Of a stretch of 64,000 bases of DNA, positions 2,968-58,500 are shown piece by piece (position 1 is the first letter of the stretch; the number at the start of each line of letters is the position of its first letter). A model generated the notes under the pieces. It was not told the origin of the DNA. It made no database searches and was given only the letters and a program-made list of their open reading frames with translations. Origin of the DNA: Clostridia bacterium (GTDB lineage Bacteria > Bacillota > Clostridia > Christensenellales > UBA1242); assembly GCA_045635805.1 (NCBI GenBank), contig JAZTWI010000001.1:213627-277626 (forward strand), written 5' to 3'. The position numbers and the translations under genes are program-made.

Positions 2968-3044
2968 TTTGATTGCTAAAAATAGGTAATTAGTGATAAA
3001 ATAATAATGTTAAAATGGAAAAAAATAAAAGTAGGTAGAGAAAA

Positions 3045-37489: not shown

Positions 37490-40400
37490 TTATCTGTATC
37501 TACCTTTCTTTCTAATTAAGAAGAATAGTACAACTGCTACAACTATACCGATAGCAAATGCAATAATTACTATCTTAGTTGTGCTATTTAGTGGGTCAAC
37601 CTTAATGAATTTATATGTGCTAAGTACTGTTCCGTCATCGGAAATTACTTTAACTACAAATTCACCGGCTTTTTCAAGTGTTACGGTATTAACAACAATT
37701 TCGCTATTTTTATCGATTGTTGCGTATGTTACACCATTAATTTCTACTCTAGCAGCACCTACTTGTTCATAGATTAAACCTGGGTTATAGTATAATTCAA
37801 TAGTTTCTCTAGACTCAATACCTGACTCTATATTAGATTGAATTACAGGTTTCTCATCATTAATCCATACTTTAAATGTAAATGGAATATATTGATAGGT
37901 GATAGTATTATAAGATTTTAACGTGATTTCGTAACTACTATTTTGTTGTTCGTTAAATGCTAACCAAATCAAACTAGAAGCATATTTGTTACCACTATCA
38001 GCAATTCCATTAGGAGATTTTAGGAATTCTTGTGTAACGTCATATCTTTCGTTCATTACAATTTTAGTAACATTTTCAATTACAAAGTTAGAGCCTTTTG
38101 AAATATTGAAACTATTTCTAGCAATGTCTTCTCTAATAATAGCGAAGCTATAAGAAGAAGATATTTCTTGGTTTGTAACTGTACTACTGCTAAGTTCTGT
38201 AGTAGCTACTATATCGATAGTGTAGTATCCTTGTTCTGTTAGATTTAGAACGCCTTTTTCGTTAGTCACTGTGATTTGTACGCCGTTCTTATAAACAGAG
38301 ATACCAAGGGACTCTGTATCGTATAGTGTTAGTCCATCGAGTTCAGAGATAATCTTTAACTCAATAGGCTCATTAAATACTTGGTTATTAATAGGAGATT
38401 CGCCATTAACTTCATATAGAATCTGGTTGATTAGATATATGTATAGTAGGCTAGTATTATTCTTAGCGGTTGGTAGGGTAGAGAATATATGTTGTCTACC
38501 AGCTAGGTCTCTAACTGCGAATTGATGTAGACCTACGTTTTTAACTGTAAAGGTGTATGATACTCCACCTTCGCTTACATTAAGAACATCTAATACAATA
38601 GTTTCTATTAATTCGTTATTATAGTATCTCTCAAGGTATAATGTATTACCTTCGATATATTGATAATCAGGACTTGTTGCAGATAGTGTAAATGTTATTT
38701 TCATACCATTTGCAGCAACGCTTTGAACAACGTTTTCGTTCTCAACTAGTTTGTTATCAAGTGTTCCGATATCTACAACTTTTGTATCTAGTAGGTGAGT
38801 AGTTGTAGCAGGCAAGAAGTGAATAATTACATATCTATAAACATAACTATCGGCGCTCTGTACATTAGAGTATACTTGATATTTTACAACATATTCATAT
38901 TGAGTACCAAGGCCGTCAGTATCAATATATTCATAAGATACTATGTCAGCATTTAAGTTTAAGTTACTATTAACTCTAACATCTAGGTATATACCTTTCT
39001 GTTTATTGATTCCCATGATTTGAGATAGTGTAATACCATCATCATAGATAACATCTTTAGTAATAGGGTTTCCACTCTCTAAGTCAACATAATTGAAATA
39101 ATTATCTGTAATAAAGTAGTGGAATTCAGTTTTGTTATCTGTGCCATTAACAGTTGTGTAATTAGATGGGTCTAGTTTCTTCTGTGTTTTGCCATTATTT
39201 GAGATAGCATAAACGGCATACATTGTGATTTCTCCGTCACCTCTAGTAAATGAAATTTCTTCACTTTCTCTACCAAGAGAGTTAATTGCTTTTGCAGTGT
39301 ATTCGCCAGGTAGGGTAACAATGTAATCACTATTTACTCTATATGTTTGAGTTCTAGTAATATTATTTTCTGTATATCTTCTAACAAGTTCTATTTGAGT
39401 ACCAAAATCAATTCTTTCAGAAGTGAGTATAGTGTCCCAACTTAGAACTAATTGGAAGTCTTCTGTTAGATTTAAGTGGGTATTCGTATCAAGTGTTACG
39501 CCCTTCATATTTCTTACTGTAACTTTTTGGACAGCTGTATATATTGCCATCTTATAATCATAAACAAATATATTGTTATTGTTTAGCTCATCGCCCCAAG
39601 TGTAGTCATTGGCAGTACTAGCAAGAATTGTTTTGATTTCGTACTTGCTAAGTGCTCTAGTCTTTGACACACCTACAAATGTGATGGTTGTGATATTATT
39701 TGTTGTTATTACAGATTGAATACCAAATTGTCTTAATGCTTCTTGAGAATATTTACTATTGCTACCATAGATTTCTTCTCCAGAACAATATTGATTTGTG
39801 TCTGCATTTTCACCTGTAAATCTAATAAATACATCATATACTGATGAATCATATGTGTAACTAAACATTTCTCCGGTGTAGGTGAAGTTGTCAGAATGTT
39901 TAGCGTAACTGCCATAATATCTAATGCTACCACCAGTTTGTGAACTGCTAATACCAAATTCGTGGAAATATATAGAAGTTCTGCCGAAATTGTCGGTAAT
40001 TTCAAATCTATATACGCCCTTAGTTAAGATATATCTAGCGCCTTTGGTTTTAAATTCATTACTGTGTTTAGTGAATTGATTACCTTCGCTATCTACGTCT
40101 TTTTCTAACCATTCCTTATTGAATTGAGATGCTTTTACTTTTGTGATATAAGTTGAGCCTCTCATAGAAGGAATATACATTTCAAAGTTTACTGCTTTAT
40201 TTGTAAATACAGGAACAATCTCGCTACCTGCTACAGAGTAGGTGATAATGTAGTTATTTAATATCTTTGTATCGTAGGAAGCAGGTATTCCTAGTCTGTC
40301 TACGATAGATAAGTCTACAATGTATCCGTATTCAGAATAGTATGGACTATTCTTATCTGAAATGATTTCGTTATAATCAACAATTTTTTCGTTTATAAGT

Positions 40401-43400
40401 TCTAAGAAGTCGTGAATATATGTATCTGTTGTTACATCTGATACAATCTCAAGTGGATTATTATTTGCATCTGTTAGTGTAAGTTCTTTAGTGTTAGGAT
40501 TGTAGTATAAGTACAATTTTTCATTTAATTTACCAGATTGAACATCAATAATTGCCTTAATGAATAAGTCACTAGTTGTGTAATTAATAAAGTCAAATGA
40601 TATACCACCAACTGATGCGATAGAGCCTTTGTATGTTACAGAACCAGTCTTGAATTCTGCACCATTGTATGCCTGGTATTTATAGTTTACGCCATCATAG
40701 GTTGCGTCGTGAATATAGATACCATATACTCTGTAGTTACCAGCTTCGTCGGTTTCTAAGATTTCGTAATATTCACCAGTCTTAACAATTCCTTGTGTCA
40801 ACATATGATTTACTGACATCTCATTATCGATGTATGGACAGTAATAATATTGATTGTATTGGAATGAAGTAGGGTAGTATCTATTATGTGAGTCGTTGAA
40901 TAAGATTGATGTTGCATTGCTAGGAACGAATTGGTTATGCTCTCCTCTTAACTGAGCATCGTTATAAATAATATAATCGTCTGGAGTGTAAGAGAATTTA
41001 TAATTACTAATATCTGTTCCAAGTGGTCTAATATAGAAACCATTTACACTATCTAGTTTATCAACACTCTTAAATGTAAATGTGCTATTTGCTCTAGAGT
41101 CAACAGCGAAGAAATATTTTTCTAGGTCACTACTATAGAACTCTGTTTTCTCATCGTAAGTAAAGTTGTAATATGGGGAATATTCATCGAATAACTGCTC
41201 ATATTCTTTACCTGTAGTTGTTACATTTCCTTTGTAAGTATATCTATCTAAGTTCATAAGTTGAACTAAGTTATACTTAGGTTTAATTCTGTCAACTGTG
41301 ATTTCGTATGTTGTGCTGTAGTAAGAAACTGTCTGTCCTTCTAGTTCTGCTTGATAGTTATCTTCTAGTCCAACATAATGAATCTTTATGTAGTAATTAG
41401 CTAGGTCAACGTTTTCGTTACTATCAAGTAATCTAAAGTTAGAGTAGTTCTCTTTTTCATCAGTATTTAAGATGTCATCTAAGTTATTATCAAAGATGAT
41501 AATAGCGTAGTATGTTGTATCTCCTATAACGTTACAGATAAATGAACCATCTTGTCTAGCCTGGCTAGGGACTAGCTTGGTTGTATGATTCTTAACAACA
41601 CCTGTAGTTGTATCTAAATGTCTATTGAATAGTAGGTTATCTTCACTTACATCATTTTGATATACTTGGATATTATTAATATCAATTTTTGCCATATACT
41701 CATCATTTGTGATTGAGAATAAGAATACAAGGGTTTCATTATTAGTGCTAAGTAGAGAAACTGTAGAACCTGTAACACCTGTAACAGGTGACTGGTTATC
41801 TGATAATGATTTTAATTGTCCTGCTTCTTCACTCAAATAATGAGAGATTAGGGCATATGTACCAGCAAGTTGTGAGCCATTGTCTGTTGTAGTAATTGGT
41901 ATACTAGAAGAAGTTCCACCATTATCTTCATCATAATTTATTTCACCATAATATTTACCATACATTTCTCCTAGTGGGGCAGTATGTTTAATATTAAATG
42001 TAATTTGTAAATTATTAGGTTGGTGATTTAATGCTTTTACTTCTAAGTCACCTTTGTCATTGGCTTCTCTTAGGATATGACCAGATTGGTCGCTAAGTGT
42101 AATGTAATATGAATTTAGTGAATCTCCATAGAAGAATGAGTTTTCATTGAGTCTTGAGTCTACTGAATTCATATTTTGATACTCAGTAATGTACTTCTTC
42201 ATAAGTGTACTATTATACTTAGCATCGGCGTTTACATTAGTTTCATCTATAATCTTTGTTCCATTTGCGCCCTTATTTAGAACTAAGTCTAATTTAAAGA
42301 TATTCTCGTATAACGCTTTGTTTAGTAGAGACTTACTAACAGCGTCTGCAAGTTTAGTTTCTTTAGAAAGTAGGGCAATGTATGAGTTATAGAAGTCTGC
42401 AAAGTTATATTTGTCAGTAGTTAATGTGAATTTGGTTTCTACCTTATTAGTAGAGAATAGGTTACTACTTGTAAAGCTAGAGTTACTATAACCTGTATTA
42501 TTTGATGTTTGGTTATTTTGAATATTATTAGCAGTAATTAATTTTTGATTTTCAGTATCTTTGTAATTACTACCAAGTAAGAATTCGATGTCGCTACCAA
42601 TATTATATAAGCTACTAGCGGCATTGTCGTTAACAGGTACAGAGATGATTCCGTTTCTATCAACGTAGTATATACGATATATAATTCTAGTATCAGTGCC
42701 TAGGACTTCTGGAGCGATACCTTTGTCATATTCTCTCTTGAAGATGTATAGACCTTCTTGAGTAATTATTTCTCCGGTTGCAGTGTCAACAGAAGGATTA
42801 ATGACAGATGAGAATACTCTCTCAGTTAGTTCATCTTGTGGCTCGGTGTAGTCTGATAAGCTCTCGGTATAGATATGTTTAGGATTTCCTTGAGTATCAG
42901 AAATTACCGCAGAACCCTTCATATCATATGGATAACTGATAGAGTGGTGTCTATTACCATCTTCATCAAATATCTTCATATCGATTACTTTTGTCTCAGT
43001 TCCGTTTGAGAAAGTAATTCTAAGATATGTTGCAGAGTCGTCTGCTGTAGGCTCTACATACTCAACATCTGTGATAGCATAGTTCTCATAGAAACTAGCA
43101 TTATAAGCGTAATATGTGTAGGTTAGACTGTAATCAGGAATTACTTTTTGGTCTTCTTTAGTATTTTCTAGAGAAGAGATATATAGTTTAGCTGCAGCAT
43201 AAGATTTAGCAGCTTCTCCTGTGAGTCCTGTTGCTTTTGCAAGAGTGTCACTATTTTTAAATGTTGCATAAGATAGTGTCTGTGTCTTGTCTAAGTTCAT
43301 CCATAAGTCGCCTAGGCTATTATTACCAAGGTCGTCAAATATAGCATAGTAATATAAACCTGTACCACTTACACCACTAAGTGCAGTATTTAAATCTCCA

Positions 43401-46400
43401 TAGATAGTTGTAATATACTCTCTAGCCACATCTCCATAGAAGTCTAGGGTAGTGGATAATTGGGTTTGTTGTTTATTATAGATATAGTTATCAAATATTA
43501 TACCACTAGCATCTACAGCAATCTTACCATTTTGGTCGTAAGTAGGTAGTTTAATTGTAGAATCATCTACTGTGTATGTAAATACAGATGAGGCTACTTC
43601 TCTTGTTAACTCTGCGTCTATAAATAACTTATATGTCTTTGTGTTGCCTTGTGTGTCAGTTTTTACATAATAAACTGTATCACCGATAAGAACTGTTGAA
43701 CCTGTTACATAGTAGAATCCTGCATTTGTTCCACTAGTTACTTGAATTCTAGGTGAGATAGGTGTATTAGGGAAGAAATAGTATTTATTTACATCACTAA
43801 TTGCGGAAACCTTACCTTCTTCGTCTGTAATCTGTGCTTTTTGAATTGGAATTAAGATATAATAATCGTCACCAACTTTTTCAAGTTTAGCATTATTAAA
43901 TTTTCCACCTGTTGCAGAATTAATATAAGATAATGCTTCTTTTAATCTATTAACAGGATTTTCTGCAGTGTATTCAATTTTTGTGTATTCAGTAATGCTT
44001 TCTTCGTATAATGCTAGGTCTGTAGCATTAACTTTGATAGCTTTGTAATCTCCCCAAGTAACTGTTGTAACGTCACTAACGATATTATTCTTGTTATTTG
44101 GTTTAGGGTCTACTATTGACCTAGGAGAAGTATTATCAAAGTAAATTACATATCTACATTCATTACCAGCTTCGTCTTTCATTCTAAATAGGTACATACA
44201 GCTAGTTGAATTTGTAAAGTAATTACCATTAGCAACTCTATTGGTTGTTTCATAGTTGTAATTATATAATTTACCAATCTCTATCTCTGGGTCTGTGCCG
44301 AGTAAGGCAAAATTAGTAGTAATACCAGATTTATTATTTGAGAATTGTAGTAGGTCATCATAGTCAGATGTTCTATTAAATGTAATCTTGTGCCAGTATG
44401 TAAAGATTTGTGCTCCACTCGCTTTTGGTGAATATCTAAATGTGAAGTCTGTATTTACTATCTGTTGATTAGCTTTTAGTTGTAATTCGTCATTAACAAC
44501 ATAGAAACCTTGGTCATTTAGCATTACAGGAACAACTTTCATTCCAGCAATTTTCTTGTTATCAGAAGTGTACTTTTGGGTAACGCTAGGTTTGGTTCCA
44601 TCTGTATTCTCTGAACCATAGTAAATTGTGATAGAGTAGTGACCATCTAGGTTCCAATCTGGTCTGTCTCCAGGTAGTCTAAATGTTACATAATATCTAG
44701 ATTTATCTTCACTCTTAGTAAATGTAGAGATTGTTCTAACATATGTTTCATTTGTTGCTCCTGACATAACAATAGGTAACATTCCATCAGGGTTCTCTCC
44801 ATCAAATCTAGCACGGAAAGGTATGTCTGTTGAGATTCCTTCAAAGTTCTCTTTGTTTACTTCGATATAAATATTATTTTGGAAGTATGTTGGTACTAAC
44901 CAAGATATTCTAACAACTTTATTAGTATAACTAGATGGTAGTAGGGTTTCATATTCAGGATTGCCTTCGCCGTCTACTTCTCCTGTTTCTACATCAAAAT
45001 ATAGTTTAGGAGAGTTATTATCAACGACGAATACAAATACTTGATAGAACTGTGTACCAGCAGCTTCGCTATCTAGTTTGCCTAGTTCTTTGTAATAAGA
45101 ATATGTATATTTGATTATTACTTCGTAGTAACCATCATCTTTACAATAGATATCTTTAAAGTATGTGTCGTGGTTATCGTATATTTCTAGGTTCTCTGGT
45201 TTTAAATCTAAGTTTCCATAGATATCTTTGTAAGTAGAGTATTTATAGATTTTAGATTCACTTACTTTACCTGTATATAGTAGGGTAGAGTAATTTTTCC
45301 AGAATACTTGAGTGTCTGTAACGATAACTTGGCTTAGTGGTATTTGACCTGTGCCATTACCAACAAATGATGCACTGAAACCTGCACTAGGTGTAGATGT
45401 TGCAAGTTTGTTATTTGCTATATTGTTAGTTTTTAGATATAGGCTAGTGTAATCAGAGATAAAGTTCTTTTTCTCTTTTGCGTCGATTTGCTCTAACACT
45501 GCATATCCACTATCTGTCTCAGCATCTTCTTTACTAAAGTAAGAGATTGAACCAAATATAGATAGTTTATCAGCACCTAAAACATGGGTAGCTGTTCTTT
45601 TATTGATTACAGGAATAAATCTAGTATCTGAACCTGAACCATATTGTGAATCTTGAGTTTCAATATTTTTAATTAACTGATGGAAATATGCATCTCCAGC
45701 AACTGAGTTACTAATATTAGTAGAATTTACATTTTTAGAATATTCAGTTGAACTACCAGCTAGGAAGTAATTGATAATAGATTTATCATCATATTTGTAA
45801 TTGTAGTAAGAAGATGACTGTTTTGATTCGTGTGGGGTAGTGGTGTATTCAACTTCACCTAGGGTGTATTTAACAGATAATTTGATTGTCTTACCATCTG
45901 GAGAAATATCTATATTATATTCAGTTTCTAGTATACCGGTAGAACCAAAGTCGGTAGATGTTATTTGATTAATATCAAATGTATCTGTTCCAACTTTTAC
46001 TTTGTTTGTTGAAGAGTCATATTCATAATTCTTAGCATTGATAGTAACTTTACCTTCTGCATCTAAATAACCAGAGAAAATTACATATAATTTATTGCTA
46101 TTGCTATTAGAACCTTCTTCGCTCTGTGTGTGGTCGATAGGTTCTTTTATTACTTCTGTATCGTATGGAATAGTGTAGTCATATGGAACTAGTCTATTGG
46201 TGCTAACAGCGTTGCTAGAAGAATATCTAGTACCAACTACTGTACCTATAGCATTGTTGTACCATGGACAAACATAGTTATACTCAAATGTATAAACACC
46301 TAGTTTTTCAAAAGCCATTTCGTAAGTGTACTCAATAGCAAGGGTAGCAGCGTTTAATAATCTCTTTAGGTCTTTTGCATTTTTACCTGTTACGCTATAA

Positions 46401-48328
46401 GAGTATTCAACAGAGTATGTTTTATCTTTTAATTCACCACTAGTTATGGTTAGGGTATCGTTTGCGTAATCATACTCAAATGTGAAATCTTCTGCTGGTG
46501 TTGTATGAGTAGCTTCCTGATATAGAGTAGCAGTCCTAGTATTTGGGTTTTCTCTATTTGCAATGAAAAGATAATATGTTTTATCTGAAGTTGCATTTAC
46601 AAAGTAGGTTGTGTCTTCACCAATTGTTTGAGATTGAATAGGGTATGTACCACTAAATACTTTATCTTTAAATTCGATTTTATTGTCTTCTTCGTTATAA
46701 GAATAATCAAATTCACTGGCTGTATTTACTTCTTTTTGGAAGTCCTTGTCTCTATATAATTTTTCGGTATTATCTTTGTCAAAGTAGAAAACGATAGTAT
46801 CTGTGATAGTGACAACTTTTGAAACAGTATCGGTATTTTGTGGTTTTTGTTTATAGATAGAATATAGACTAGTATCTTGTAATTTTGCTATATTTGAGTC
46901 TATCCATCTGTACTCATCAAATACTTCTGTTACATATGTTTTAGTAGTGAATACTGAATCTTCTTGGAATTCAGAAACTTCTTCAATAATAGTAGTTAAT
47001 TTATATTCAAATGTAAATTTGCCAGACTCTAGTAGATTAACAATATTCTCATCATCGTCTACGTTATTATAAGAGTAAACTACGTAGTCTTGGTCTGTGC
47101 TTGAGAAGTATAGATATTCAAGTACGTTGCCATTGTTTGAGTAGTTAGTTAAGATATAAACATCTTTTAGATAAATATCATTATTGTAGAATGTTATCTT
47201 ACCATACTGTTGATATGCAGAATTTACAGTGTAAACACCTGTTGTGAATACAGAAGTAATGTTTTCTGTAATCTCATTGTTTTGTCTAGTATATGCTAGA
47301 TTATATCTACTAGGTGCGTATAAGATAGAAGGCTTATCTCCTGCAAAATTATAGAAATACTCATTGATTGTATTCTTATTAGATGCTCCTAGTGTTGCAC
47401 CTATAATTTCAGGATAATCAGCATAATCTGCACTGTCTAGCATATAGAATGTATATACAAATGACTCGTCAGCTGTAGTTGAGCCGTCAGCTAAAATTCT
47501 TTGGAATGTAAATGTAAATTTATATTGACCAGAAGGATTAACTACTTTGTAGGTAGGGGAGTTCTGTTCTCCTGTAAGTTTTGCAGTAACATTATTTAAA
47601 TCAAAATATTGATACCAATAATAACTAGATTTTGGATTGCCGTCATCATCTGTATATGGAGAATGTATTTCTGGGTCGAGATTTAGAATATGGAAACCTT
47701 CAGCAGTTCTTAGTTCTCCTGTAACAGTTAAGTCAGCTAGTTTAGTCTTGCCATCTTCTTCGGTAGCAGGGGAACCAAATGAAAGGTATAAGTTCTCGAC
47801 ATTATATGTAGATGAAGTTGGGTTCTTATAGTTATCAGAAAGAATAACGAAATCATTATCGTCTATTTCATCGTAAAAAATAGGCTCAAGTTCTTCGTCA
47901 GTAGTTCTAAAGTGAGTAATATTACCAGGAATATAACCACCCAAACCAGAAGGTCTCTCTCTTTCTATGTACTGCATCAATTCTGCATTATTAACCATTA
48001 GAGATACTTCTCCTAAATCGGAAGAATACTCAGCTCCGGCTGTTGTTGCAGTATATAGCCTACTATTAGAGTGGCTTAGGTAACTATACTCGTAAGATTT
48101 ACTATCCGTAGTAAGTCCGTAACCTTCTGCTATTCTAACCTTAGTCTTTGCAGAATTAAATGAGATATTGTACTCATTCATTATCTGGGCTTTTGTTAGG
48201 GCTTTAGCCTGATAGTTGTTTACAGGGGAAATAAATCCTAGTGCAATAACTAATGCCACTAGAACTAGGGTTAGGCTTCCTAACATTGAATTTAATGCAT
48301 TTTTCCAACTAAATCTTTTATTTTTCAT
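37490..48328 (-). CDS. giant cell-surface protein (3,612 aa): signal peptide, huge beta-rich ectodomain, C-terminal TM anchor
   Basis: ATG 48328 sits 9 nt after GGAG (track start 48343 is 5 codons upstream). N-terminus is MKNKRFSW..LTLVLVALVIALGFI..YQAKA|L. C-terminus is IVIIAFAIGIVVAVVLFFLIRKKGRYR. A GxYxhxhxDxxGN motif typical of PKD/HYR-type Ig folds recurs through the body. Confidence 0.85.
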   Translation of the reverse strand: MKNKRFSWKNALNSMLGSLTLVLVALVIALGFISPVNNYQAKALTKAQIMNEYNISFNSAKTKVRIAEGYGLTTDSKSYEYSYLSHSNSRLYTATTAGAEYSSDLGEVSLMVNNAELMQYIERERPSGLGGYIPGNITHFRTTDEELEPIFYDEIDDNDFVILSDNYKNPTSSTYNVENLYLSFGSPATEEDGKTKLADLTVTGELRTAEGFHILNLDPEIHSPYTDDDGNPKSSYYWYQYFDLNNVTAKLTGEQNSPTYKVVNPSGQYKFTFTFQRILADGSTTADESFVYTFYMLDSADYADYPEIIGATLGASNKNTINEYFYNFAGDKPSILYAPSRYNLAYTRQNNEITENITSVFTTGVYTVNSAYQQYGKITFYNNDIYLKDVYILTNYSNNGNVLEYLYFSSTDQDYVVYSYNNVDDDENIVNLLESGKFTFEYKLTTIIEEVSEFQEDSVFTTKTYVTEVFDEYRWIDSNIAKLQDTSLYSIYKQKPQNTDTVSKVVTITDTIVFYFDKDNTEKLYRDKDFQKEVNTASEFDYSYNEEDNKIEFKDKVFSGTYPIQSQTIGEDTTYFVNATSDKTYYLFIANRENPNTRTATLYQEATHTTPAEDFTFEYDYANDTLTITSGELKDKTYSVEYSYSVTGKNAKDLKRLLNAATLAIEYTYEMAFEKLGVYTFEYNYVCPWYNNAIGTVVGTRYSSSNAVSTNRLVPYDYTIPYDTEVIKEPIDHTQSEEGSNSNSNKLYVIFSGYLDAEGKVTINAKNYEYDSSTNKVKVGTDTFDINQITSTDFGSTGILETEYNIDISPDGKTIKLSVKYTLGEVEYTTTPHESKQSSSYYNYKYDDKSIINYFLAGSSTEYSKNVNSTNISNSVAGDAYFHQLIKNIETQDSQYGSGSDTRFIPVINKRTATHVLGADKLSIFGSISYFSKEDAETDSGYAVLEQIDAKEKKNFISDYTSLYLKTNNIANNKLATSTPSAGFSASFVGNGTGQIPLSQVIVTDTQVFWKNYSTLLYTGKVSESKIYKYSTYKDIYGNLDLKPENLEIYDNHDTYFKDIYCKDDGYYEVIIKYTYSYYKELGKLDSEAAGTQFYQVFVFVVDNNSPKLYFDVETGEVDGEGNPEYETLLPSSYTNKVVRISWLVPTYFQNNIYIEVNKENFEGISTDIPFRARFDGENPDGMLPIVMSGATNETYVRTISTFTKSEDKSRYYVTFRLPGDRPDWNLDGHYSITIYYGSENTDGTKPSVTQKYTSDNKKIAGMKVVPVMLNDQGFYVVNDELQLKANQQIVNTDFTFRYSPKASGAQIFTYWHKITFNRTSDYDDLLQFSNNKSGITTNFALLGTDPEIEIGKLYNYNYETTNRVANGNYFTNSTSCMYLFRMKDEAGNECRYVIYFDNTSPRSIVDPKPNNKNNIVSDVTTVTWGDYKAIKVNATDLALYEESITEYTKIEYTAENPVNRLKEALSYINSATGGKFNNAKLEKVGDDYYILIPIQKAQITDEEGKVSAISDVNKYYFFPNTPISPRIQVTSGTNAGFYYVTGSTVLIGDTVYYVKTDTQGNTKTYKLFIDAELTREVASSVFTYTVDDSTIKLPTYDQNGKIAVDASGIIFDNYIYNKQQTQLSTTLDFYGDVAREYITTIYGDLNTALSGVSGTGLYYYAIFDDLGNNSLGDLWMNLDKTQTLSYATFKNSDTLAKATGLTGEAAKSYAAAKLYISSLENTKEDQKVIPDYSLTYTYYAYNASFYENYAITDVEYVEPTADDSATYLRITFSNGTETKVIDMKIFDEDGNRHHSISYPYDMKGSAVISDTQGNPKHIYTESLSDYTEPQDELTERVFSSVINPSVDTATGEIITQEGLYIFKREYDKGIAPEVLGTDTRIIYRIYYVDRNGIISVPVNDNAASSLYNIGSDIEFLLGSNYKDTENQKLITANNIQNNQTSNNTGYSNSSFTSSNLFSTNKVETKFTLTTDKYNFADFYNSYIALLSKETKLADAVSKSLLNKALYENIFKLDLVLNKGANGTKIIDETNVNADAKYNSTLMKKYITEYQNMNSVDSRLNENSFFYGDSLNSYYITLSDQSGHILREANDKGDLEVKALNHQPNNLQITFNIKHTAPLGEMYGKYYGEINYDEDNGGTSSSIPITTTDNGSQLAGTYALISHYLSEEAGQLKSLSDNQSPVTGVTGSTVSLLSTNNETLVFLFSITNDEYMAKIDINNIQVYQNDVSEDNLLFNRHLDTTTGVVKNHTTKLVPSQARQDGSFICNVIGDTTYYAIIIFDNNLDDILNTDEKENYSNFRLLDSNENVDLANYYIKIHYVGLEDNYQAELEGQTVSYYSTTYEITVDRIKPKYNLVQLMNLDRYTYKGNVTTTGKEYEQLFDEYSPYYNFTYDEKTEFYSSDLEKYFFAVDSRANSTFTFKSVDKLDSVNGFYIRPLGTDISNYKFSYTPDDYIIYNDAQLRGEHNQFVPSNATSILFNDSHNRYYPTSFQYNQYYYCPYIDNEMSVNHMLTQGIVKTGEYYEILETDEAGNYRVYGIYIHDATYDGVNYKYQAYNGAEFKTGSVTYKGSIASVGGISFDFINYTTSDLFIKAIIDVQSGKLNEKLYLYYNPNTKELTLTDANNNPLEIVSDVTTDTYIHDFLELINEKIVDYNEIISDKNSPYYSEYGYIVDLSIVDRLGIPASYDTKILNNYIITYSVAGSEIVPVFTNKAVNFEMYIPSMRGSTYITKVKASQFNKEWLEKDVDSEGNQFTKHSNEFKTKGARYILTKGVYRFEITDNFGRTSIYFHEFGISSSQTGGSIRYYGSYAKHSDNFTYTGEMFSYTYDSSVYDVFIRFTGENADTNQYCSGEEIYGSNSKYSQEALRQFGIQSVITTNNITTITFVGVSKTRALSKYEIKTILASTANDYTWGDELNNNNIFVYDYKMAIYTAVQKVTVRNMKGVTLDTNTHLNLTEDFQLVLSWDTILTSERIDFGTQIELVRRYTENNITRTQTYRVNSDYIVTLPGEYTAKAINSLGRESEEISFTRGDGEITMYAVYAISNNGKTQKKLDPSNYTTVNGTDNKTEFHYFITDNYFNYVDLESGNPITKDVIYDDGITLSQIMGINKQKGIYLDVRVNSNLNLNADIVSYEYIDTDGLGTQYEYVVKYQVYSNVQSADSYVYRYVIIHFLPATTTHLLDTKVVDIGTLDNKLVENENVVQSVAANGMKITFTLSATSPDYQYIEGNTLYLERYYNNELIETIVLDVLNVSEGGVSYTFTVKNVGLHQFAVRDLAGRQHIFSTLPTAKNNTSLLYIYLINQILYEVNGESPINNQVFNEPIELKIISELDGLTLYDTESLGISVYKNGVQITVTNEKGVLNLTEQGYYTIDIVATTELSSSTVTNQEISSSYSFAIIREDIARNSFNISKGSNFVIENVTKIVMNERYDVTQEFLKSPNGIADSGNKYASSLIWLAFNEQQNSSYEITLKSYNTITYQYIPFTFKVWINDEKPVIQSNIESGIESRETIELYYNPGLIYEQVGAARVEINGVTYATIDKNSEIVVNTVTLEKAGEFVVKVISDDGTVLSTYKFIKVDPLNSTTKIVIIAFAIGIVVAVVLFFLIRKKGRYR

Positions 48329-48397
48329 TACTAAAATCTCCATTTTTCTTCAAGTGTCGTAAAATAAATTAATTTAATTCAAAATTTCTACTAAATA

Positions 48398-48426
48398 ATT
48401 TTACCACAACCATCAAAATCTGACAA
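48398..48426 (-). promoter_or_regulatory. sigma-A-type promoter of the giant gene
   Basis: Minus strand reads TTGTCA-17 nt-TAAAAT, about 70 nt upstream of ATG 48328. Confidence 0.5.
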
Positions 48427-48614: not shown

Positions 48615-48689
48615 GGTCCCATGGTCAAGAGGTTAAGACACCACCCTTTCACGGTGGTAACAGGGGTTCGATTCCCCTTGGGACTACCA
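48615..48689 (+). tRNA. tRNA-Glu (anticodon UUC), CCA encoded
   Basis: GGUCCCAUGGUCAAGAGGUUAAGACACCACCCUUUCACGGUGGUAACAGGGGUUCGAUUCCCCUUGGGACUACCA. Anticodon arm is CCACC-CUUUCAC-GGUGG. Confidence 0.9.
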
Positions 48690-48695
48690 GTTATA

Positions 48696-48723
48696 AGAGA
48701 TAGAGAAGTCTATCTCTTTTTTT
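48696..48723 (+). terminator. Rho-independent terminator after tRNA-Glu
   Basis: AGAGATAGA-GAAG-TCTATCTCT followed by T7. Confidence 0.8.
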
Positions 48724-48937
48724 GTTTTCTAAAAAATAAAACCACAGACTAAATAATGTCCGTGGTTTTTTATAAATTTAAAAAGGCTAGATATAGCACT
48801 ATATAAAATATTTGCATATTATTTTAAAATCTCAAAAGGGCAAAAAAAAATTACTAACACAAGGTTGTAATTTTTTTCTACATAATAAATTATGTAATAG
48901 AGAAAAAGTATAAAAGGGGAATAGGCTTTTTCTCTAA

Positions 48938-49014
48938 TGGTAGCGGCGGTGGGACTCGAACCTACGACCTTTCGGGTATGAACCGAATGCTATAGCCAAC
49001 TAAGCTACGCCGCC
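48938..49014 (-). tRNA. tRNA-Met (CAU), elongator type (Ile2-lysidine identity not excluded)
   Basis: Reverse complement GGCGGCGUAGCUUAGUUGGCUAUAGCAUUCGGUUCAUACCCGAAAGGUCGUAGGUUCGAGUCCCACCGCCGCUACCA. There is one A-C mismatch in the T stem. Confidence 0.8.
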
Positions 49015-49032
49015 ATAGTGAAATACTCAATT

Positions 49033-49061
49033 ATATTACAATATGTTAGGTGGTTTGTCAA
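49033..49061 (-). promoter_or_regulatory. sigma-A promoter of tRNA-Met
   Basis: Minus strand reads TTGACA-17 nt-TAATAT, about 18 nt before the tRNA 5' end. Confidence 0.55.
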
Positions 49062-49131
49062 GAGTTTTTCGATAAAATTTCTAATAATTCTATACGATTT
49101 TGATAAATAAAAAAGGTGTAATTGATTAAAA

Positions 49132-49156
49132 CAAAAAAAAAACGCAATTAAGCGTC
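49132..49156 (-). terminator. terminator after tRNA-fMet
   Basis: Minus strand GACGC-UUAAUU-GCGUU followed by a long U run (plus-strand A run 49133-49142). Confidence 0.5.
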
Positions 49157-49162
49157 TTAGAA

Positions 49163-49240
49163 TGGTAGCGGGGGTGGGATTCGAACCACACGACCTTCGG
49201 GTTATGAGCCCGACGAGCGACCGAGCTGCTCCTCCCCGCG
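49163..49240 (-). tRNA. initiator tRNA-fMet (CAU), CCA encoded
   Basis: CGCGGGG... start gives a C1-U72 mismatch. The anticodon stem has three G-C pairs (UCGGG-CUCAUAA-CCCGA). It is 78 nt long, and the T stem GUG(U)GG/CCCAC carries an extra U. Confidence 0.85.
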
Positions 49241-49398
49241 ATATATATTGTATAGGCATATTGCCTTGACAACGATAGTAGTATAGCACTCCTAATTATC
49301 AAAAGTCAATAACTTTTCCAAAAAAAATTTTTGAAAGCAGAAAATTTTGCTTTTTTCTACAAAATATTGATTTTTAACTAATTTTCCGTGTTTGATAA

Positions 49399-49686
49399 TT
49401 ATTTATTTGTATACCAAACTTCTTCTGCTGAGCCCCAGGTTAGAGACTCTCTAGCATACTCTTCTAGGAATTCGCTTCTATTATTATCATAGTAGGAATT
49501 AGAAGTATTATAATTGTAAATCTCTTGAATTAAAGCTTGTTTTTCGGCTTCTAGGTTATTAGTTTCTCTCTTGTAATTAGAGATTTGTATGAATTGACAA
49601 GACAAAATAATAATGCATACAAACATTACTATCATTGTGAGTATTGTGGTTATTCTAACAAATTTTACTCTATTGTCCCTTTTCAC
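49399..49686 (-). CDS. divIC: septum formation initiator (DivIC/FtsB-like)
   Basis: 95 aa with an N-terminal TM segment, a coiled coil (NLEAEKQALIQEI) and a C-terminal YARESL...EEVWY. Sits in the position downstream of yabQ as in B. subtilis. Confidence 0.6.
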   Translation of the reverse strand: MKRDNRVKFVRITTILTMIVMFVCIIILSCQFIQISNYKRETNNLEAEKQALIQEIYNYNTSNSYYDNNRSEFLEEYARESLTWGSAEEVWYTNK

Positions 49687-50048
49687 TTAAATATAACCTT
49701 GCCAAATCTACTTTTTTTAATGTTCTTATAGAGAATTACTAGTCTATTATACACCCATTTATGACCTTTGGCAAACAATTTGTCCATAATTAATATGTCA
49801 AGACCTATTCCTACAAGGTATGCAATTAGTAAAAAAAGTCGAAATTCTCCCATATTTATATAGTTGACTAAATATGTAAATACGATAGCAAAAAATAGCA
49901 TAAATATAATATCAAGTGGTATTTTAATTGCTAATTTATTTCTGATGAATTGAGATGAAGTCATTAAAGAAAATATTAAACCAACTATGTATCCTGCAAG
50001 TAATAGAACTGCAAAGTCTCTCATTTGTAATACGTAAGATAATTTCAC
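49683..50048 (-). CDS. yabQ: spore cortex biosynthesis protein YabQ-like
   Basis: 121 aa, 3-4 TM segments, NMGEFRLFLLIAYLVG motif. 4-nt overlaps with both neighbouring genes. Confidence 0.55.
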   Translation of the reverse strand: MKLSYVLQMRDFAVLLLAGYIVGLIFSLMTSSQFIRNKLAIKIPLDIIFMLFFAIVFTYLVNYINMGEFRLFLLIAYLVGIGLDILIMDKLFAKGHKWVYNRLVILYKNIKKSRFGKVIFK

Positions 50049-50320
50049 TTAAAAATCCTTCTTAAGATATTGGTTTCTTTGCCGTATGTAATCTTTTCAA
50101 ATTTGCCTTCGGCTTCTAATATTTCAGAGTCTATATCTAATTTAAGGATATTAATATCACTTCCCAATATATTTAGGGTGGTGTCTTTTAATTTTAAGGT
50201 TATATTTGTATCACTAGACGATAAAATCTCGGTTATTCCAGACAAATTTAAGTGTTTTCTGTTGGTTAGGTTAATAGATTCGTTTTTAATGTCATTTGAG
50301 TTGTTTGAAATTTTTTCCAT
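50045..50320 (-). CDS. yabP: sporulation protein YabP
   Basis: 91 aa with the pattern LNLSGITEILSSSDTNITLKLKDTTLNILGSDINILKLDIDSEILEAEGKFEKITY. AAGGAG RBS. Confidence 0.7.
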   Translation of the reverse strand: MEKISNNSNDIKNESINLTNRKHLNLSGITEILSSSDTNITLKLKDTTLNILGSDINILKLDIDSEILEAEGKFEKITYGKETNILRRIFK

Positions 50321-50444: not shown

Positions 50445-51623
50445 ATGGAAGAAGAAGTTAAAAAGGATATCGAAATAGAAGAAAATAAGAAAGAAAAACC
50501 GAAAAAAGAAAAGGTAAAAAAAACACAGCCAGAAGAAACTCTATATACTAGTTTAGTAGCTAAATATAGTGATATGCATAGTTCAAAAAATGCTCTTTAT
50601 TACGTTAGTATTATACTAGTTAATATGGCGGTATTGGTTTTAGCAATGCTATGGCTAAATAATAAGCACTCGGTAGTTAGTTTTGATGCGATAAAGTTAA
50701 ATCTTGACTCTACCTATATAATACTAATGTGTTGTGTGTTTGTTCTAATAAAAATGATTCAAACGGTGTCATTATTTATTAGTTATCACTTTAAATCTAG
50801 AGCAAATAATTTCGGTAAAATGTATATTGCCAATGCTTATAGCGACTTTTACGGTAATATGACAATGTTCTCAAGTGGTAGAAATGCTGCATTAGTTGGT
50901 GCATTATCTACTACAAAGATTAAACCACAACACTTAATATCTGTTACTTACGAGAAAAAATACTATAATTTATTCACTTTCTTGATTATATCGTCAATTA
51001 TGATTTTAGTGGGCGCTTTCAAATGGGAAGCTATACTGCATGTATTAGTTACGCTTGTTTGTTTCTTTACAATCATTTGTGGTTTTATGTATTTGTTGTA
51101 TATTCGTATGACCAGAAGTGATAAAGAAAGAAGTTTAAATATTTGTTCATTTGTTGCTAGAGTTCTTTCTAAAATTGGTATTGTAAAAGATTTTGAAAAA
51201 TCGTATTTTGCCATGGTTGATAAAACAATGGTTACAGCAAAAGCAAATAGGGTATCGTGGAAAGCAAAAATATTAAATATGTTATCATCACTTGTTGTTA
51301 TTGCACTTAGAGCTATGGTGGTATTTTTGATATTTAGTTCTCTTGGATTATCTACAGCTGAATATTACTTTAAGTCATTGTGGATATTATTAGTACTTGA
51401 TATTGTAATGATGGTATGGCCATTCCCAAGGGGAATAGTTATTGTTGATATATTATTAATATCTATTATTAGTAAAATGTTATATCCAGATTACATTTGG
51501 TATGTGCTAGTACTATATAAATTATTTGAAAATATTATCTATGCATTACATTATGTTATTGTCTTGATAATAGATAAGATTGTAAACAAAGTAAAGAACA
51601 AAAAACAAATTAGTAAAGAGTAA
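50445..51623 (+). CDS. polytopic membrane protein (possibly flippase-like/UPF0104), K/E-rich N-terminus
   Basis: 392 aa with a GAGGGG RBS and about 8 hydrophobic segments. The family assignment is tentative. Confidence 0.45.
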   Translation: MEEEVKKDIEIEENKKEKPKKEKVKKTQPEETLYTSLVAKYSDMHSSKNALYYVSIILVNMAVLVLAMLWLNNKHSVVSFDAIKLNLDSTYIILMCCVFVLIKMIQTVSLFISYHFKSRANNFGKMYIANAYSDFYGNMTMFSSGRNAALVGALSTTKIKPQHLISVTYEKKYYNLFTFLIISSIMILVGAFKWEAILHVLVTLVCFFTIICGFMYLLYIRMTRSDKERSLNICSFVARVLSKIGIVKDFEKSYFAMVDKTMVTAKANRVSWKAKILNMLSSLVVIALRAMVVFLIFSSLGLSTAEYYFKSLWILLVLDIVMMVWPFPRGIVIVDILLISIISKMLYPDYIWYVLVLYKLFENIIYALHYVIVLIIDKIVNKVKNKKQISKE

Positions 51624-51630
51624 ATAAAAT

Positions 51631-51660
51631 AAAAGACTGTGAAAATTCACAGTCTTTTTT
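51631..51660. terminator. bidirectional terminator
   Basis: AAGACTGTGAA-AA-TTCACAGTCTT flanked by an A run and a T run. Confidence 0.8.
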
Positions 51661-52711
51661 ATGTGAGTGGAGATAGTCTATACTTGGTATCATAAATAAA
51701 TTTGCAATCAAAAAATCTCAAGAGTTCAGATTGATTATTTCTAAGTGATTCTCCGTTAATCGGAATTTTACTAATTAGTACCTGATTGTCCAAATTGTTA
51801 ATTTTATTTGTAAAGTCATTGTAAAGGCATATATTGAAATTATTGTTTGCTAATTCTTCCATTTTGCTTGTGTCTAGTTCTCCCTTTGGAAAAGAGTATA
51901 GGGGAGTATTTTTTATTATAGGTAAAATTTCTTTTTGCCAAAGACTGAGTTCCTTCTTAAATTCTAGAAGGGACTTTTGTGTGTCGCTAGAATATTTGTA
52001 ATTGTTGCAACCAAACACCCAACCGTTTTTTCTCAATGTCTCGACTATCTCTGTCACTCTCTCTATCTCATATCTGCTACTAGCATTTTTTTGATTTGTA
52101 TTATAACCGAGCAGTCCGTCTTCTCCTGAGAAGAATAAAATTCCTTTTGCGTTATTAAAAGAAAAGTCTGGGTGGTAACATATAAAATTCTCTAAAATTA
52201 CTAAAAATTCGTTATCGTATTGTATTCTATCTTGAATACTTTTTTTAGTTGTATAGGTAGCAATTTTATTATTTCTGTCAATAATAATTTTATCTATCTC
52301 ACCATGGTTTTGATAGTTACTTTTATACGTTACATTTTCAAAAGAAAGTATGATTGGTTTTTTGTTTTTTGGTAGGTTTTTTGAGTCTATTTTTACTTCA
52401 TTATTTTGTACGTTTAATATATCAAAAATGCTTACTAAAATATAGTTGTTTTCATATAAACTTTGTAGGATTTTTTCGAATTCAAAAGTAGTAATTTTTT
52501 CTCTATCAAAAGTATTGTTTAGTTTGTTGTTTTGACTCAATGCTTTTTCAGGAAAGGCCATTAAGGTATTGAAGCTAAGAATGTCAATATGGGTGTCGTT
52601 TTCGCTACTAAATTTGGATATAAAAAAGTAACCACAAAATATAAAGTGTGATAAAAATAGTAGAATTATTATTGAAAACAAAAGTATGTTTTTAAAGTGT
52701 TTATTTTTCAT
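51659..52711 (-). CDS. hypothetical N-terminally anchored protein (distant polysaccharide-deacetylase-like? uncertain)
   Basis: 350 aa with one N-terminal TM segment. NodB-type motifs are not convincingly present. Confidence 0.4.
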   Translation of the reverse strand: MKNKHFKNILLFSIIILLFLSHFIFCGYFFISKFSSENDTHIDILSFNTLMAFPEKALSQNNKLNNTFDREKITTFEFEKILQSLYENNYILVSIFDILNVQNNEVKIDSKNLPKNKKPIILSFENVTYKSNYQNHGEIDKIIIDRNNKIATYTTKKSIQDRIQYDNEFLVILENFICYHPDFSFNNAKGILFFSGEDGLLGYNTNQKNASSRYEIERVTEIVETLRKNGWVFGCNNYKYSSDTQKSLLEFKKELSLWQKEILPIIKNTPLYSFPKGELDTSKMEELANNNFNICLYNDFTNKINNLDNQVLISKIPINGESLRNNQSELLRFFDCKFIYDTKYRLSPLT

Positions 52712-55482: not shown

Positions 55483-55566
55483 AATTAAAGTACTATTATT
55501 ATTATATATTACTAAATAATTTTTATCATTTAAGTTATAATAAAAATACTAGATGGAGAAATGGAA

Positions 55567-58500
55567 ATGAGAAGAAAACTATTACTATTATGTTTATTGA
55601 TTTGTTCGATAATGGGACTATGGGCCTGTGGGTCTGACCCTTATCAAAATTTATCACTAACGGTATATTGCAATGACCAAGTTGTAGCAGACGATGCTGT
55701 TATCAACCTAAATATCAAGCAAGAAGCTGTCGGTGTATATAGTTATGAGCAGGTAGTGTTACTTGTAAAGGTTGATGACGATGATGATGAGACGGATAGG
55801 GGTATCACAGTTAGTGATGGTCAAGGTTTTGTAAATACAACCACACAATTTGACCCTAAATCAGGTATAACATCTATTGTTGTTAAGGCTAATTCGTACG
55901 CCAATACAGGTAATTTCTCATTAAAGATAAGTACTAATGAAGGTAATAAAGAGAGACTAATTAAGTTCAATATTGACCTAGCTCTAGAAAACTTTACCTT
56001 TAAAGAAGACTCTTTACAAGTAATAGGTAAGGGTAATTCTCTATCTTTAAAAAATGTAGATGACTATATTGATTTCTATCCAGCAGCAACCACTCAGAGA
56101 GACATCAAGGTTGAATTAGCAACACTTGCACCAGCAGGTGATGGTAGTGTTACACACTTTGTTGATGGTTGGTTAGATGGTGGTAACTTCTCATACCTAA
56201 ATGATGGAAAACAATTTGCTAGTATTATAGATGGAACACTTACAACATATAATTCATACGACAATGGCACGGGAACAATGGTTAAGGTTGCTTATCCTAC
56301 ACAGACCATCTCTGCTAGTATGGGTTCAGAGACTTTGCAACAAGAAGTAGTTGTTTTAAAAGCTAGTTTCTATCTTGCTTCAGAGAAAGAATATATTGAG
56401 AGATTTAAGGTTATACCTGTTATTGAGTCTTGTGAACAGATAGAAGTCTTCATGAATGCTCAACAGGGTGATTCTGACGAGTTTGCTATACCACTATCAG
56501 AAGCAGGGTATTATGAGATGGTTCTTATCGACCCTAGCTTTAGAGAAAATATCTTTACTTCAAACCTAGAATATTACATAGAGAGAGAATTAAATTTCGA
56601 ATTATCAGAGAACTTCCACGTAGAAGCAGATTCTACAGGAGAGAGTTTACCTGTAAATTTAGTTCCTATCACAGGCGAAAACCACTTCAAAGTTCACGCA
56701 ATGAAGGCTGGTATCTACAGTCACGAGTTTAGAATTGTGCACGATGATTACCCAGAGTTATTTGACCAAAGGGTAGTAGTTCAATTTACTGTTAAAGACT
56801 TACCAACAGATATCCTTATCAATGGCTCAGAGTCTGTAGGAGTGTTTACTATCTATGATTACTATGCTAATTCTAAAGGTGAGAGAATAGATATTGACCT
56901 AAATACTAAGGTTGGTAAATATGAGTATTGTATCTACACACAGGAATACGAAGGTATCTTAAGTGTTAATTTAAATACAGCTAGGTCTACAGAAAATCTA
57001 GTTTTTGCTAATTATATTAGAGACAGATACTTACTTACTACTACTGTAGAAGGTAAGGCTTATACTAAGTTTGGTCAGACTGACTCCTTCTATTTGAGTC
57101 ATTCATTTGATGTGTTACCAAATGTTGTATTACCTTTGTACATAGGTGTTTCTATTAATCTTTGTGCAGATAGTTATTACGAAGCGTATTCGCAATCAGA
57201 GATTTATGAGTACTTTATGAATCTTCTTATGAATAGACGTTTTTATGTTCAATTCCAAATGGGATTAAGGGCGTTTGAATTTGAAGGTGAAGATTTCCAT
57301 GTTGACCTAACAAATGATAAATATATGACTACAGGTAGACCTGCAGATGCTATACCATTATGTGTTCTTCCAGAAGGTCAAACTATTGATAGTTGTTTAG
57401 CAAAACTTGAATATGACAAGAGCTTAATCAATATTACAGAGTATAAACCTGCTGAGAGAAACGCTAGAACTGTGATTGTTGCTCAGTGCAATAATATTCG
57501 AAAAGAAGGAACAACAGCTGTTAGGTTCCTTGCAAGAAATGGTGTTGAAGGAAATGTAACAGTTTCTACATATATGCCAACTATTTATACGATGCACACA
57601 GAAGAGAATCCTGTTCCTTTAGCGATTACCGTTAATGAGAAGAGTAGTGGATACTTATATAGAATTTCTGGTAATTCTACATACGAAGACTTTGCTTCAC
57701 ACTTTGATAGATTACCAATGGTTGGAACATCTGGAGTTCTTGGAACATATGACTCTGTTCACACATTATTTGGTATAGTTGGAAATAAAATAGATATTTC
57801 CTTCCAAGACTTTACTTATATTGAAGATATTTTCAAGAGTTATGATATTACAAACAAAGTAAAAGTTTCATTTAATAACGATGGTTATGTAACATATTCA
57901 AATGGTGTACTTTCTTTACATAGATTAGTTCTAGATAAAGATATGCCTATCATTATGACACTTAAATATACAGGTGGATATGAAGTTCTAGATGAAAATA
58001 ACAAGCCTGTGTACCAAGAAGTTCTAGTTGAGCATAAGGTTAAAATTTATATATATAGTCCTTTGCAGGGTGTATCTATTTTATCTGAAAAGTCAGCAGA
58101 CTTATATGTGTATGATAGTTTAAGTTTCTTTGATAGAACTGCACCAGACACATCAAATGTTAAGACTAGAGATTTATCTTCTAATACTATTAGGGCATCA
58201 TTCAGTCCAAGTGAAAGAAATCTTGGTTCTGCTTGGAACGAAGAATTTGGTGGATATAAGCCACTAACATTAGTATATACCTGTGGAATGTTAGAAGAAG
58301 CAGTTAAAGATAAAAATGGCAAGGCTGTGGTTATTCAGTCAAATATGTCAGGACAAGACTATCCATTATATTACAAAGATATATTCGAAGTAGTTCCTGC
58401 AGAAAATGAGAGTTTAATCTATACTTGTCAGGTTAGAAGTAGACTAAGTGAAGACTTAATCGATTGGATTAAGGCATACTATGGTGGTATTTCTGCTACT

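Follow-up and report, generated by a model that had tools for sequence, protein, structure and literature searches.

A giant, tail-anchored protein of gut Christensenellales, probably a surface fibre with an Ig-like stalk

We analysed a 64,000-nt stretch of contig JAZTWI010000001.1 (GCA_045635805.1, positions 213,627-277,626 of the forward strand; Clostridia bacterium, Christensenellales, UBA1242), referred to here as the window, which encodes on its minus strand a giant protein of 3,612 amino acids (aa) and ~410 kDa. We read this protein as a Sec-exported, tail-anchored giant surface fibre whose most likely role is adhesion or cell contact, with a probability of roughly 0.6; the architecture is well supported, the adhesive function only inferred. 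Giant Gram-positive surface proteins with a stalk of immunoglobulin (Ig)-like domains are a kind already known, and what sets this family apart is a non-repetitive chain that stays co-linear over at least 500 clusters, a transmembrane anchor, an N-terminal body of unrecognised fold, and the coupling to a Rho paralogue across the family and to VirD4 in distant members. The Christensenellales belong to the human gut microbiota, where they are heritable and associated with health; their cell surface is little known, and a large family of 400-kDa surface proteins is now defined in them.

The gene is a single uninterrupted open reading frame (ORF) of 10.8 kb, as an earlier note on this DNA had described it, with an intact frame from 48343 to 37490 (3,617 codons counted from the first ATG). 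This first ATG, at 48343, lies five codons upstream of an in-frame ATG at 48328 and is probably not the start in use. The start at 48328, also the choice of the earlier note, is the better one because its Met is invariant in 23 aligned homologues (M6 in the 3,617-aa numbering, first ATG = 1, in which residues of the signal peptide are given) and because a GGAG Shine-Dalgarno sequence (48338-48341) stands 9 nt 5' of it, within the 'ATGGAG' of the first ATG; an 'ME...M' pattern upstream of the start is also present in several homologues. The product is rich in T (9.8%), Y (8.8%), N (8.5%) and S (8.4%) and has 7 Cys in all, and its 52 N-x-S/T sequons against 54 expected represent no enrichment in N-glycosylation sites.

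Export, anchoring and predicted fold

Hydropathy analysis revealed only two hydrophobic segments in the whole chain, at ~residues 20-40 and 3590-3612. By rule, the N-terminus has the features of a Sec signal cut by signal peptidase I, namely an n-h-c pattern with small residues at -1 and -3 (site context ...YQAKA↓LTK), and the N-termini of the homologues that were read have Ala at -1 and one of A, V, T and I at -3, which fits the signal peptidase I rule. The hydrophobic core and the conserved A/V/T/I-x-A pattern bear out the cleavable signal with an AKA↓L site that had been proposed from the sequence. The C-terminus reads DPLNSTTK-IVIIAFAIGIVVAVVLFFLI-RKKGRYR, a 20-residue helix with a hydropathy peak of 3.39 followed by a basic tail; this single helix at the extreme C-terminus with its basic tail, typical of a type I anchor, is conserved in relatives, as is [DE]-P-[LIMV]-[NS] immediately before the helix. 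No LPxTG motif occurs anywhere in the protein, no NCBIfam sorting-signal model matched, and the wall-anchoring SLH and CWB2 modules had no Pfam match over the full protein, in agreement with the earlier description of a type I membrane anchor rather than one of LPXTG or S-layer type. The idea of a sorting signal shared with other proteins at the C-terminus ([DE]P[LIMV][NS], transmembrane helix, basic tail) was set aside, since no further ORF, be it of the window or of 13 loci, has such a tail; we treat the tail as a plain anchor, the sequence set being small for judging a sorting signal. Between signal and anchor lies a predicted ectodomain of 3,541 aa and 402 kDa with an acidic isoelectric point of 4.6.

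AlphaFold2 models cover residues 49-1248 and 2400-3590 (Table 1). The C-terminal model, built on a 23-sequence alignment, is essentially all beta and comprises ~10 beta-rich units and one 21-residue helix (2642-2662); its predicted local distance difference test (pLDDT) score is 80.7, and its predicted template-modelling score (pTM) of 0.41 is as expected of a beads-on-a-string arrangement. A Foldseek search of this model against the PDB gave 118 matches at E<=1e-3 with 6-11% identity, all of them multi-domain chains of Ig, fibronectin type III (FN3), macroglobulin (MG) or S-layer type, including the GhpA base, contactins, alpha-2-macroglobulins, EA1, Sap, a Nitrosopumilus S-layer protein and the Ig-like domains of PrgB. 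Residues 2400-3590 are thus predicted to form a string of Ig-like beta-sandwiches, and it is to this span that the statement applies. The beta-sandwich chains of the GhpA grappling-hook base (9fly), EA1, Sap and the Nitrosopumilus S-layer protein are among the best matches (E 8e-13 to 6e-8), but at such identities there is no sequence-level relationship to them, their anchoring and N-terminal parts differ, and template-modelling (TM) scores to these chains are low, as what they have in common with the model is just the bead-string pattern.

The N-terminal model (pTM 0.63) appears to be of a different fold, with pLDDT mostly 75-92 over a head that contains strands of up to 23 residues. Foldseek found no confident analogue for it in the PDB or BFVD: a single PDB match at E<=1e-3 had a probability of 0.11, and isolated Ig-like matches (CTLA-4, CopC) appeared at E>0.1 only. 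A teneurin-like Rhs/YD-repeat shell was rejected, with no Pfam RHS match and a teneurin Foldseek match of probability 0.11 and TM score 0.05. Head residues 49-450 are conserved and residues 450-900 are the most variable part of the protein; the middle part includes a core (1250-1440) common to distant relatives. The earlier picture of one long string of Ig modules therefore holds for residues 2400-3590, where structure searches of AlphaFold tiles, a check suggested at the time, did find the Ig-like signal, and appears not to extend to residues 49-1248.

Table 1 Features of the giant gene, its product and surroundings (window coordinates unless a locus is named; residue numbers refer to the giant protein)
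Feature	Position	Strand	Remarks
Giant protein coding sequence	37490..48328	-	3,612 aa from second ATG; stop codon 37490-37492
Signal peptide	48200..48328	-	residues 6-48; basic n-region, 18-residue hydrophobic core, AKA↓L cleavage site
N-terminal 'head'	45644..48199	-	residues 49-~900; beta-rich, very long strands; AlphaFold2 model ma78e6d0f0cb8
Low-confidence stretch	44600..45643	-	residues ~900-1248; pLDDT <50 at tile residues 882-939; mixed beta elements
Middle part	41147..44599	-	residues 1249-2399; well conserved; motifs 1382-1403, 1662-1676
C-terminal stalk	37574..41146	-	residues 2400-3590; AlphaFold2 model m3d8b10472eb5
Membrane anchor	37493..37573	-	transmembrane helix residues 3591-3610 (37514-37573) and tail RKKGRYR (37493-37513)
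Hairpin motif, example GVYRFEITDNFGRTSIYFHEF	39956..40018	-	residues 2776-2796; strands E377-385/E390-397 of model
Further hairpin motifs	44135-44200, 43316-43360, 40706-40777, 39248-39307, 38483-38533, 37595-37666	-	
Candidate promoter, sigma-70-like	48398..48426	-	TTGTCA-17-TAAAAT, TG before second hexamer; ~70 nt 5' of start
Terminator-like hairpin	48738-48769	-	after tRNA-Met
tRNA-Glu	48615-48689	+	directly upstream; synteny marker in close clade
tRNA-Met	48938-49014	-	upstream; synteny marker in close clade
Rho-derived protein, 412 aa	36196..37434	+	convergent neighbour; Rho_N and Rho_RNA_bind domains
VirD4-type genes	L013:3670-5673, L014:3508-5688, L015:5657-7627, L020:6378-8342, L021:3199-5160		

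The recurring hairpin and the domain-family question

The protein had been described as a Tyr/Asn/Thr-rich body without exact tandem repeats, and its composition and the repeat tests at DNA, BLASTP and profile level agree. Neither TRF nor a repeat search detected DNA repeats, the sole 35-nt repeat encoding two DEAGN motifs, self-BLASTP found no protein repeats, and an hhalign comparison of 120-aa profile tiles (1,653 pairs) for cryptic repeats reached a best P of 3e-4, which is the chance level. The degenerate motif G-x-Y...D-x-x-G-N/R, by contrast with shuffled sequences, does recur far above chance as first noticed: the strict form G.[YFH].{5,8}D..G[NRT] occurs 5 times (0.1 expected from shuffles), a looser form 8 times (0.9 expected) and D..G[NR] 12 times (1.4 expected). 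In the example at residues 2776-2796, the homologue alignment shows no variation at G, Y, D, N, F and R. The five motif examples of the earlier note that lie inside the C-terminal model (at 2523, 2776, 3013, 3271 and 3560) each fall on two consecutive, paired beta-strands, and for this reason the original reading of the motif as a strand pair is right; four of the five are the closing strands of a beta-rich unit, and G-x-[YF] matches at 272, 682, 1071 and 1234 begin strands in the N-terminal model.

This motif had also been called the hallmark of PKD/HYR domains, and here the profile searches point elsewhere. Against Pfam and NCBIfam, the whole protein returned only noise at E<=10 (STT3_PglB_C, DMAP1, small_EYxxD), a sequence-profile search of the PDB with a 21-sequence alignment gave 0 matches at E<=10, PKD (PF00801/PF18911) had no match at E<=10 in the full protein, and HYR (PF02494) had none at E<=10 in either the protein or 13 homologous C-terminal tiles. 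The same 13 tiles, searched against Pfam at E<=10, yielded faint matches to Ig-like_POM152 in three, CshA_repeat in three and PKD in two, the best PKD match being sub-threshold (E 0.022). These faint matches appear to be an echo of Ig-like folds in general, and not of PKD or HYR. The G-x-Y...D-x-x-G hairpin occurs in many Ig-like families and therefore does not identify PKD or HYR; it is a usable cue for Ig-like modules, not for family assignment.

A PKD/HYR array that has diverged beyond easy recognition seems to us improbable. The recurring motif resembles the strand hairpin with which PKD and HYR domains close, arrays of both families are, like the C-terminal third as modelled and matched by Foldseek, made of Ig-like beta-sandwich units, and two of the 13 tiles carry the faint PKD matches; however, unrelated Ig-like families matched equally faintly, the protein itself had no match, and the N-terminal third appears unlike an Ig string. 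No periodicity of the kind expected from an array of tandem 80-90-residue units emerged from the self-BLASTP, hhalign or DNA repeat tests, and the motifs are spaced 100-300 residues apart, compared with ~90 in a PKD array. Both the profile searches and the search for cryptic periodicity that the earlier note proposed as checks have thus come out negative.

Conservation, proposed function and competing explanations

A word-indexed search of 5.8 billion proteins retrieved 22 full-length homologues of 3,376-5,249 aa and 94-26% identity, all intact, so that the ORF is not split by frameshifts in these other assemblies, and four more relatives, co-linear and 2.6-2.8 thousand aa long, came from a profile search; the homologues and length variation that the earlier note had suggested looking for are thus both found. 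No Pfam domain was detected in the 22 full-length homologues, nor in the distant relatives P0023-P0025, and Pfam, NCBIfam and the PDB contain no relative of the family at sequence level. Our literature search on giant proteins of Christensenellales and gut Clostridia found no paper on this family. Among GTDB species genomes the gene is present only in uncultured gut metagenome-assembled genomes (MAGs) labelled Christensenella, Christensenellales, Clostridiales or Clostridia. One MAG (CAZIRR01) has two full-length paralogues (L003 and L011), each 38% identical to the query.

To survey the family we ran filter-free HMMER with a profile of the C-terminal 1,142 positions over 1.84 billion representatives, which gave at least 504 clusters (50% identity) at E<=1e-3 and 388 at E<=1e-30. 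Among the matches listed, nearly all are 2.4-3.9 thousand aa long, in size classes of ~2.5-2.95 and ~3.4-3.9 thousand aa. Most profile matches are a single stretch ending ~27 residues short of the C-terminus, therefore the stalk and transmembrane anchor are the constant of the family. Short forms retain N-terminal landmarks such as FYLL...Y and YYYNF, and in the 5,081- and 5,249-aa forms the extra length consists mostly of insertions within residues 480-1010. Compared with an 80%-identical orthologue, the ratio of non-synonymous to synonymous substitution (dN/dS) is ~0.12 over the whole length and rises to 0.17-0.23 in residues 300-900, both values being approximate as dS is saturated; the giant gene is under purifying selection along its whole length. 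A 636-aa fragment on a 2-kb ENA contig (P0027) has two zinc-ribbon motifs (PF13240 and PF12773) fused in-frame to a homologue of residues ~2420-2960, a fusion which is probably a gene-call or assembly artefact of the short contig.

In the mechanism we propose, the preprotein would be exported via Sec by its N-terminal signal peptide and cut by signal peptidase I after Ala-Lys-Ala, translocation would halt at the single C-terminal transmembrane helix, and RKKGRYR would stay in the cytoplasm, leaving the ectodomain tethered to the membrane, as topology rules predict. The membrane-proximal third, with its ~10 predicted Ig-like beta-rich units, would act as a stalk carrying the rest through and beyond the wall, and the membrane-distal N-terminal ~850 residues, a separate beta-rich body, would be the working end that binds another cell, host glycans or mucus. 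Each position of the chain is individually conserved and co-linear, therefore the chain behaves as one fixed structure and not as an adjustable spacer, and its modules, unlike those of typical adhesins, are not recent repeats. Among known proteins, Ebh/Embp of staphylococci is likewise a giant of the Firmicute cell surface that has a signal at its N-terminus and is anchored by a membrane-spanning C-terminus, not by LPXTG; Ebh, however, is built of many near-identical helical repeat modules, whereas the giant protein is predicted to be nearly all beta where it was modelled (the first and last thirds), lacks repeats and has no Ebh-type Pfam match. If the protein mediates contact with mucus, bacteria or the target of a type IV secretion system (T4SS), it would be a main candidate for attachment and interaction of these organisms.

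Several points weigh against an adhesive surface fibre. The evidence for it consists of sequence and predicted structure, the models span two thirds of the protein (49-1248 and 2400-3590), and signal peptide and topology were judged by rule, from hydropathy, the n-h-c pattern and the residues at -1/-3. No ligand-binding domain was recognised in the giant protein, the 'head' was named the working end from its position alone, and BLASTP found no VirD4-, pilin- or VirB6-like homologue in the 64-kb window. Domain-by-domain conservation, single-copy core-gene behaviour and the lack of repeats are unlike most adhesins and fit a structural role in the envelope at least equally well. Such a role, as a membrane-tethered scaffold or a component of an S-layer-like coat, is the main rival, which we nonetheless take to be unlikely. 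Conserved synteny and purifying selection over the whole length agree with it, as does the presence of EA1 and Sap of B. anthracis and the Nitrosopumilus S-layer protein among the Foldseek matches, but these are generic matches to Ig-like strings at 8-11% identity, and known bacterial S-layer proteins are far smaller and attached through SLH, CWB2 or similar modules, of which none matched here. A surface role tied to sporulation, on the forespore or the spore for instance, is very improbable: yabP and yabQ lie 1.4-2 kb upstream in the window, and YpeB, SleB-like and SpoIIR genes adjoin relatives in L017 and L013, but such neighbours vary by lineage, tRNA genes and a terminator-like hairpin intervene, the promoter candidate is sigma-70-like, and no spore-coat or exosporium family was recognised in Pfam or NCBIfam.

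The remaining alternative comes from distant members of the family. In five distant loci, L013, L014 (P0022), L015 (P0024), L020 and L021, a gene for a VirD4/TraG-type coupling ATPase stands directly upstream of the giant gene on the same strand, and the VirD4-type proteins of L014 and L015 carry T4SS-DNA_transf, TrwB_AAD_bind and TraG-D_C domains, and their Walker A motif is intact. L013, L014 and L015 have in common a ~720-aa protein and a divergent gene of T4SS_pilin type, and L015 additionally has a VirB4-like gene. Insertion of an integrative and conjugative element at the upstream tRNAs was rejected as the cause of this linkage, as no tRNA was found in L013, L014 or L015 and the genes flanking L013, L020 and L021 serve housekeeping or germination (LeuRS, HisRS, YpeB). 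The T4SS classes of monoderms are reported to depend for cell contact on adhesins at the surface, PrgB among them, and T4SS clusters that lack a relaxase may have been recruited to other tasks (10.1101/2025.01.22.634366). Elements of the pLS20 and pCF10 type are likewise reported to have conjugation adhesins (PMC8092201, PMC7726212). Like PrgB of pCF10, the thioester-domain adhesin of pLS20 (PMC8092201) and the polymer-adhesin-domain proteins (PMC7726212), the giant protein is a surface protein with a Sec signal and a predicted Ig-like stalk. The giant protein differs from these Gram-positive conjugation adhesins in being 3-10 times larger, in having a C-terminal transmembrane helix instead of LPXTG, in having no Pfam match to, or recognised, polymer-adhesin or thioester domain, and in being encoded on the chromosome amid housekeeping genes. 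Encoding within a T4SS cluster, the mark of a conjugation adhesin, was found in the five linked loci and not for the window gene.

That the family is the contact fibre of a chromosomal VirD4/VirB4/VirB6-like, T4SS-like machine, making PrgB-like contact with a mating partner or target cell, with the window lineage unlinked, is in our view decidedly doubtful. The five linked loci, each with its VirD4-like gene, are very deeply diverged within the family (20-27% identity), and the Ig-like domains of PrgB are among the structural matches, but T4SS genes are absent both from the window and from the 7 loci of the close clade for which upstream sequence exists, VirD4 is likewise absent from three distant loci (L016, L017 and L018), no relaxase was seen in the locus sequence examined, and that two genes adjoin does not prove a joint function. 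The protein also carries its own Sec signal and therefore does not need a T4SS for export. A related proposal, which we offer as speculative, is that the family could be the fibre of a chromosomal, apparently relaxase-less T4SS-like apparatus that includes the pair of VirD4 and giant protein together with a Rho paralogue lacking Walker A, the ~850-residue contact head being of new fold, and that the window may have kept the fibre and the Rho-like gene and lost the linkage. Two leads are concrete and testable, namely the linkage to VirD4 among distant members and the conservation of the Walker-A-less Rho paralogue.

Neighbouring genes

Synteny is conserved in the close clade, in the order tRNA-Met, tRNA-Glu, giant gene and convergent Rho-like gene. 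The Rho-derived protein reaches 88 bits, far short of the 315-509 that the NCBIfam Rho models require, and the Walker A motif is absent from all four copies checked. Its gene stands tail-to-tail with the giant gene in ten loci spanning the whole family, including relatives 20-27% identical, with orthologues in the same position in L001, L002, L006, L009, L012, L013, L014, L015 and L019. The giant gene is probably transcribed from its own promoter, because a terminator-like hairpin follows tRNA-Met; the candidate promoter in Table 1 is a consensus match only. Elsewhere the window carries ordinary chromosomal genes (SMC, FtsY, Ffh, TrmD, ValRS, Pta-AckA, PlsX, RNase R, GH77, yabP/yabQ).

In the window, yabP, yabQ and two small ORFs (49005-50320, minus strand) are followed by tRNA-Met, tRNA-Glu (48615-49014) and the giant gene, an order which resembles the yabP-yabQ-divIC-yabR-tRNA region preceding spoIIE in B. 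subtilis; the giant gene takes the position after the tRNAs in this yabP-yabQ-tRNA order. Two further genes are syntenic in several close-clade loci, one for a 392-aa protein with no Pfam or NCBIfam match (50445-51623, plus strand) and one for a 350-aa protein with faint polysaccharide-deacetylase matches (51659-52711, minus strand).

The window contains another giant ORF (55534-63999, plus strand), which runs past its end, spans at least 2,812 aa and has a signal of lipoprotein type, MRRKLLLLCLLICSIMGLWAC↓GSDP. This second ORF has no Pfam match at E<=0.01 and no internal repeats, and homology to the 3,612-aa protein was looked for and none was found. In L014, beside the 5,249-aa relative and immediately upstream of the Rho-like gene, lies an 8,554-aa gene (L014:23714-29860, minus strand) with no Pfam match recorded, which shows weak local similarity to this second giant ORF of the window.

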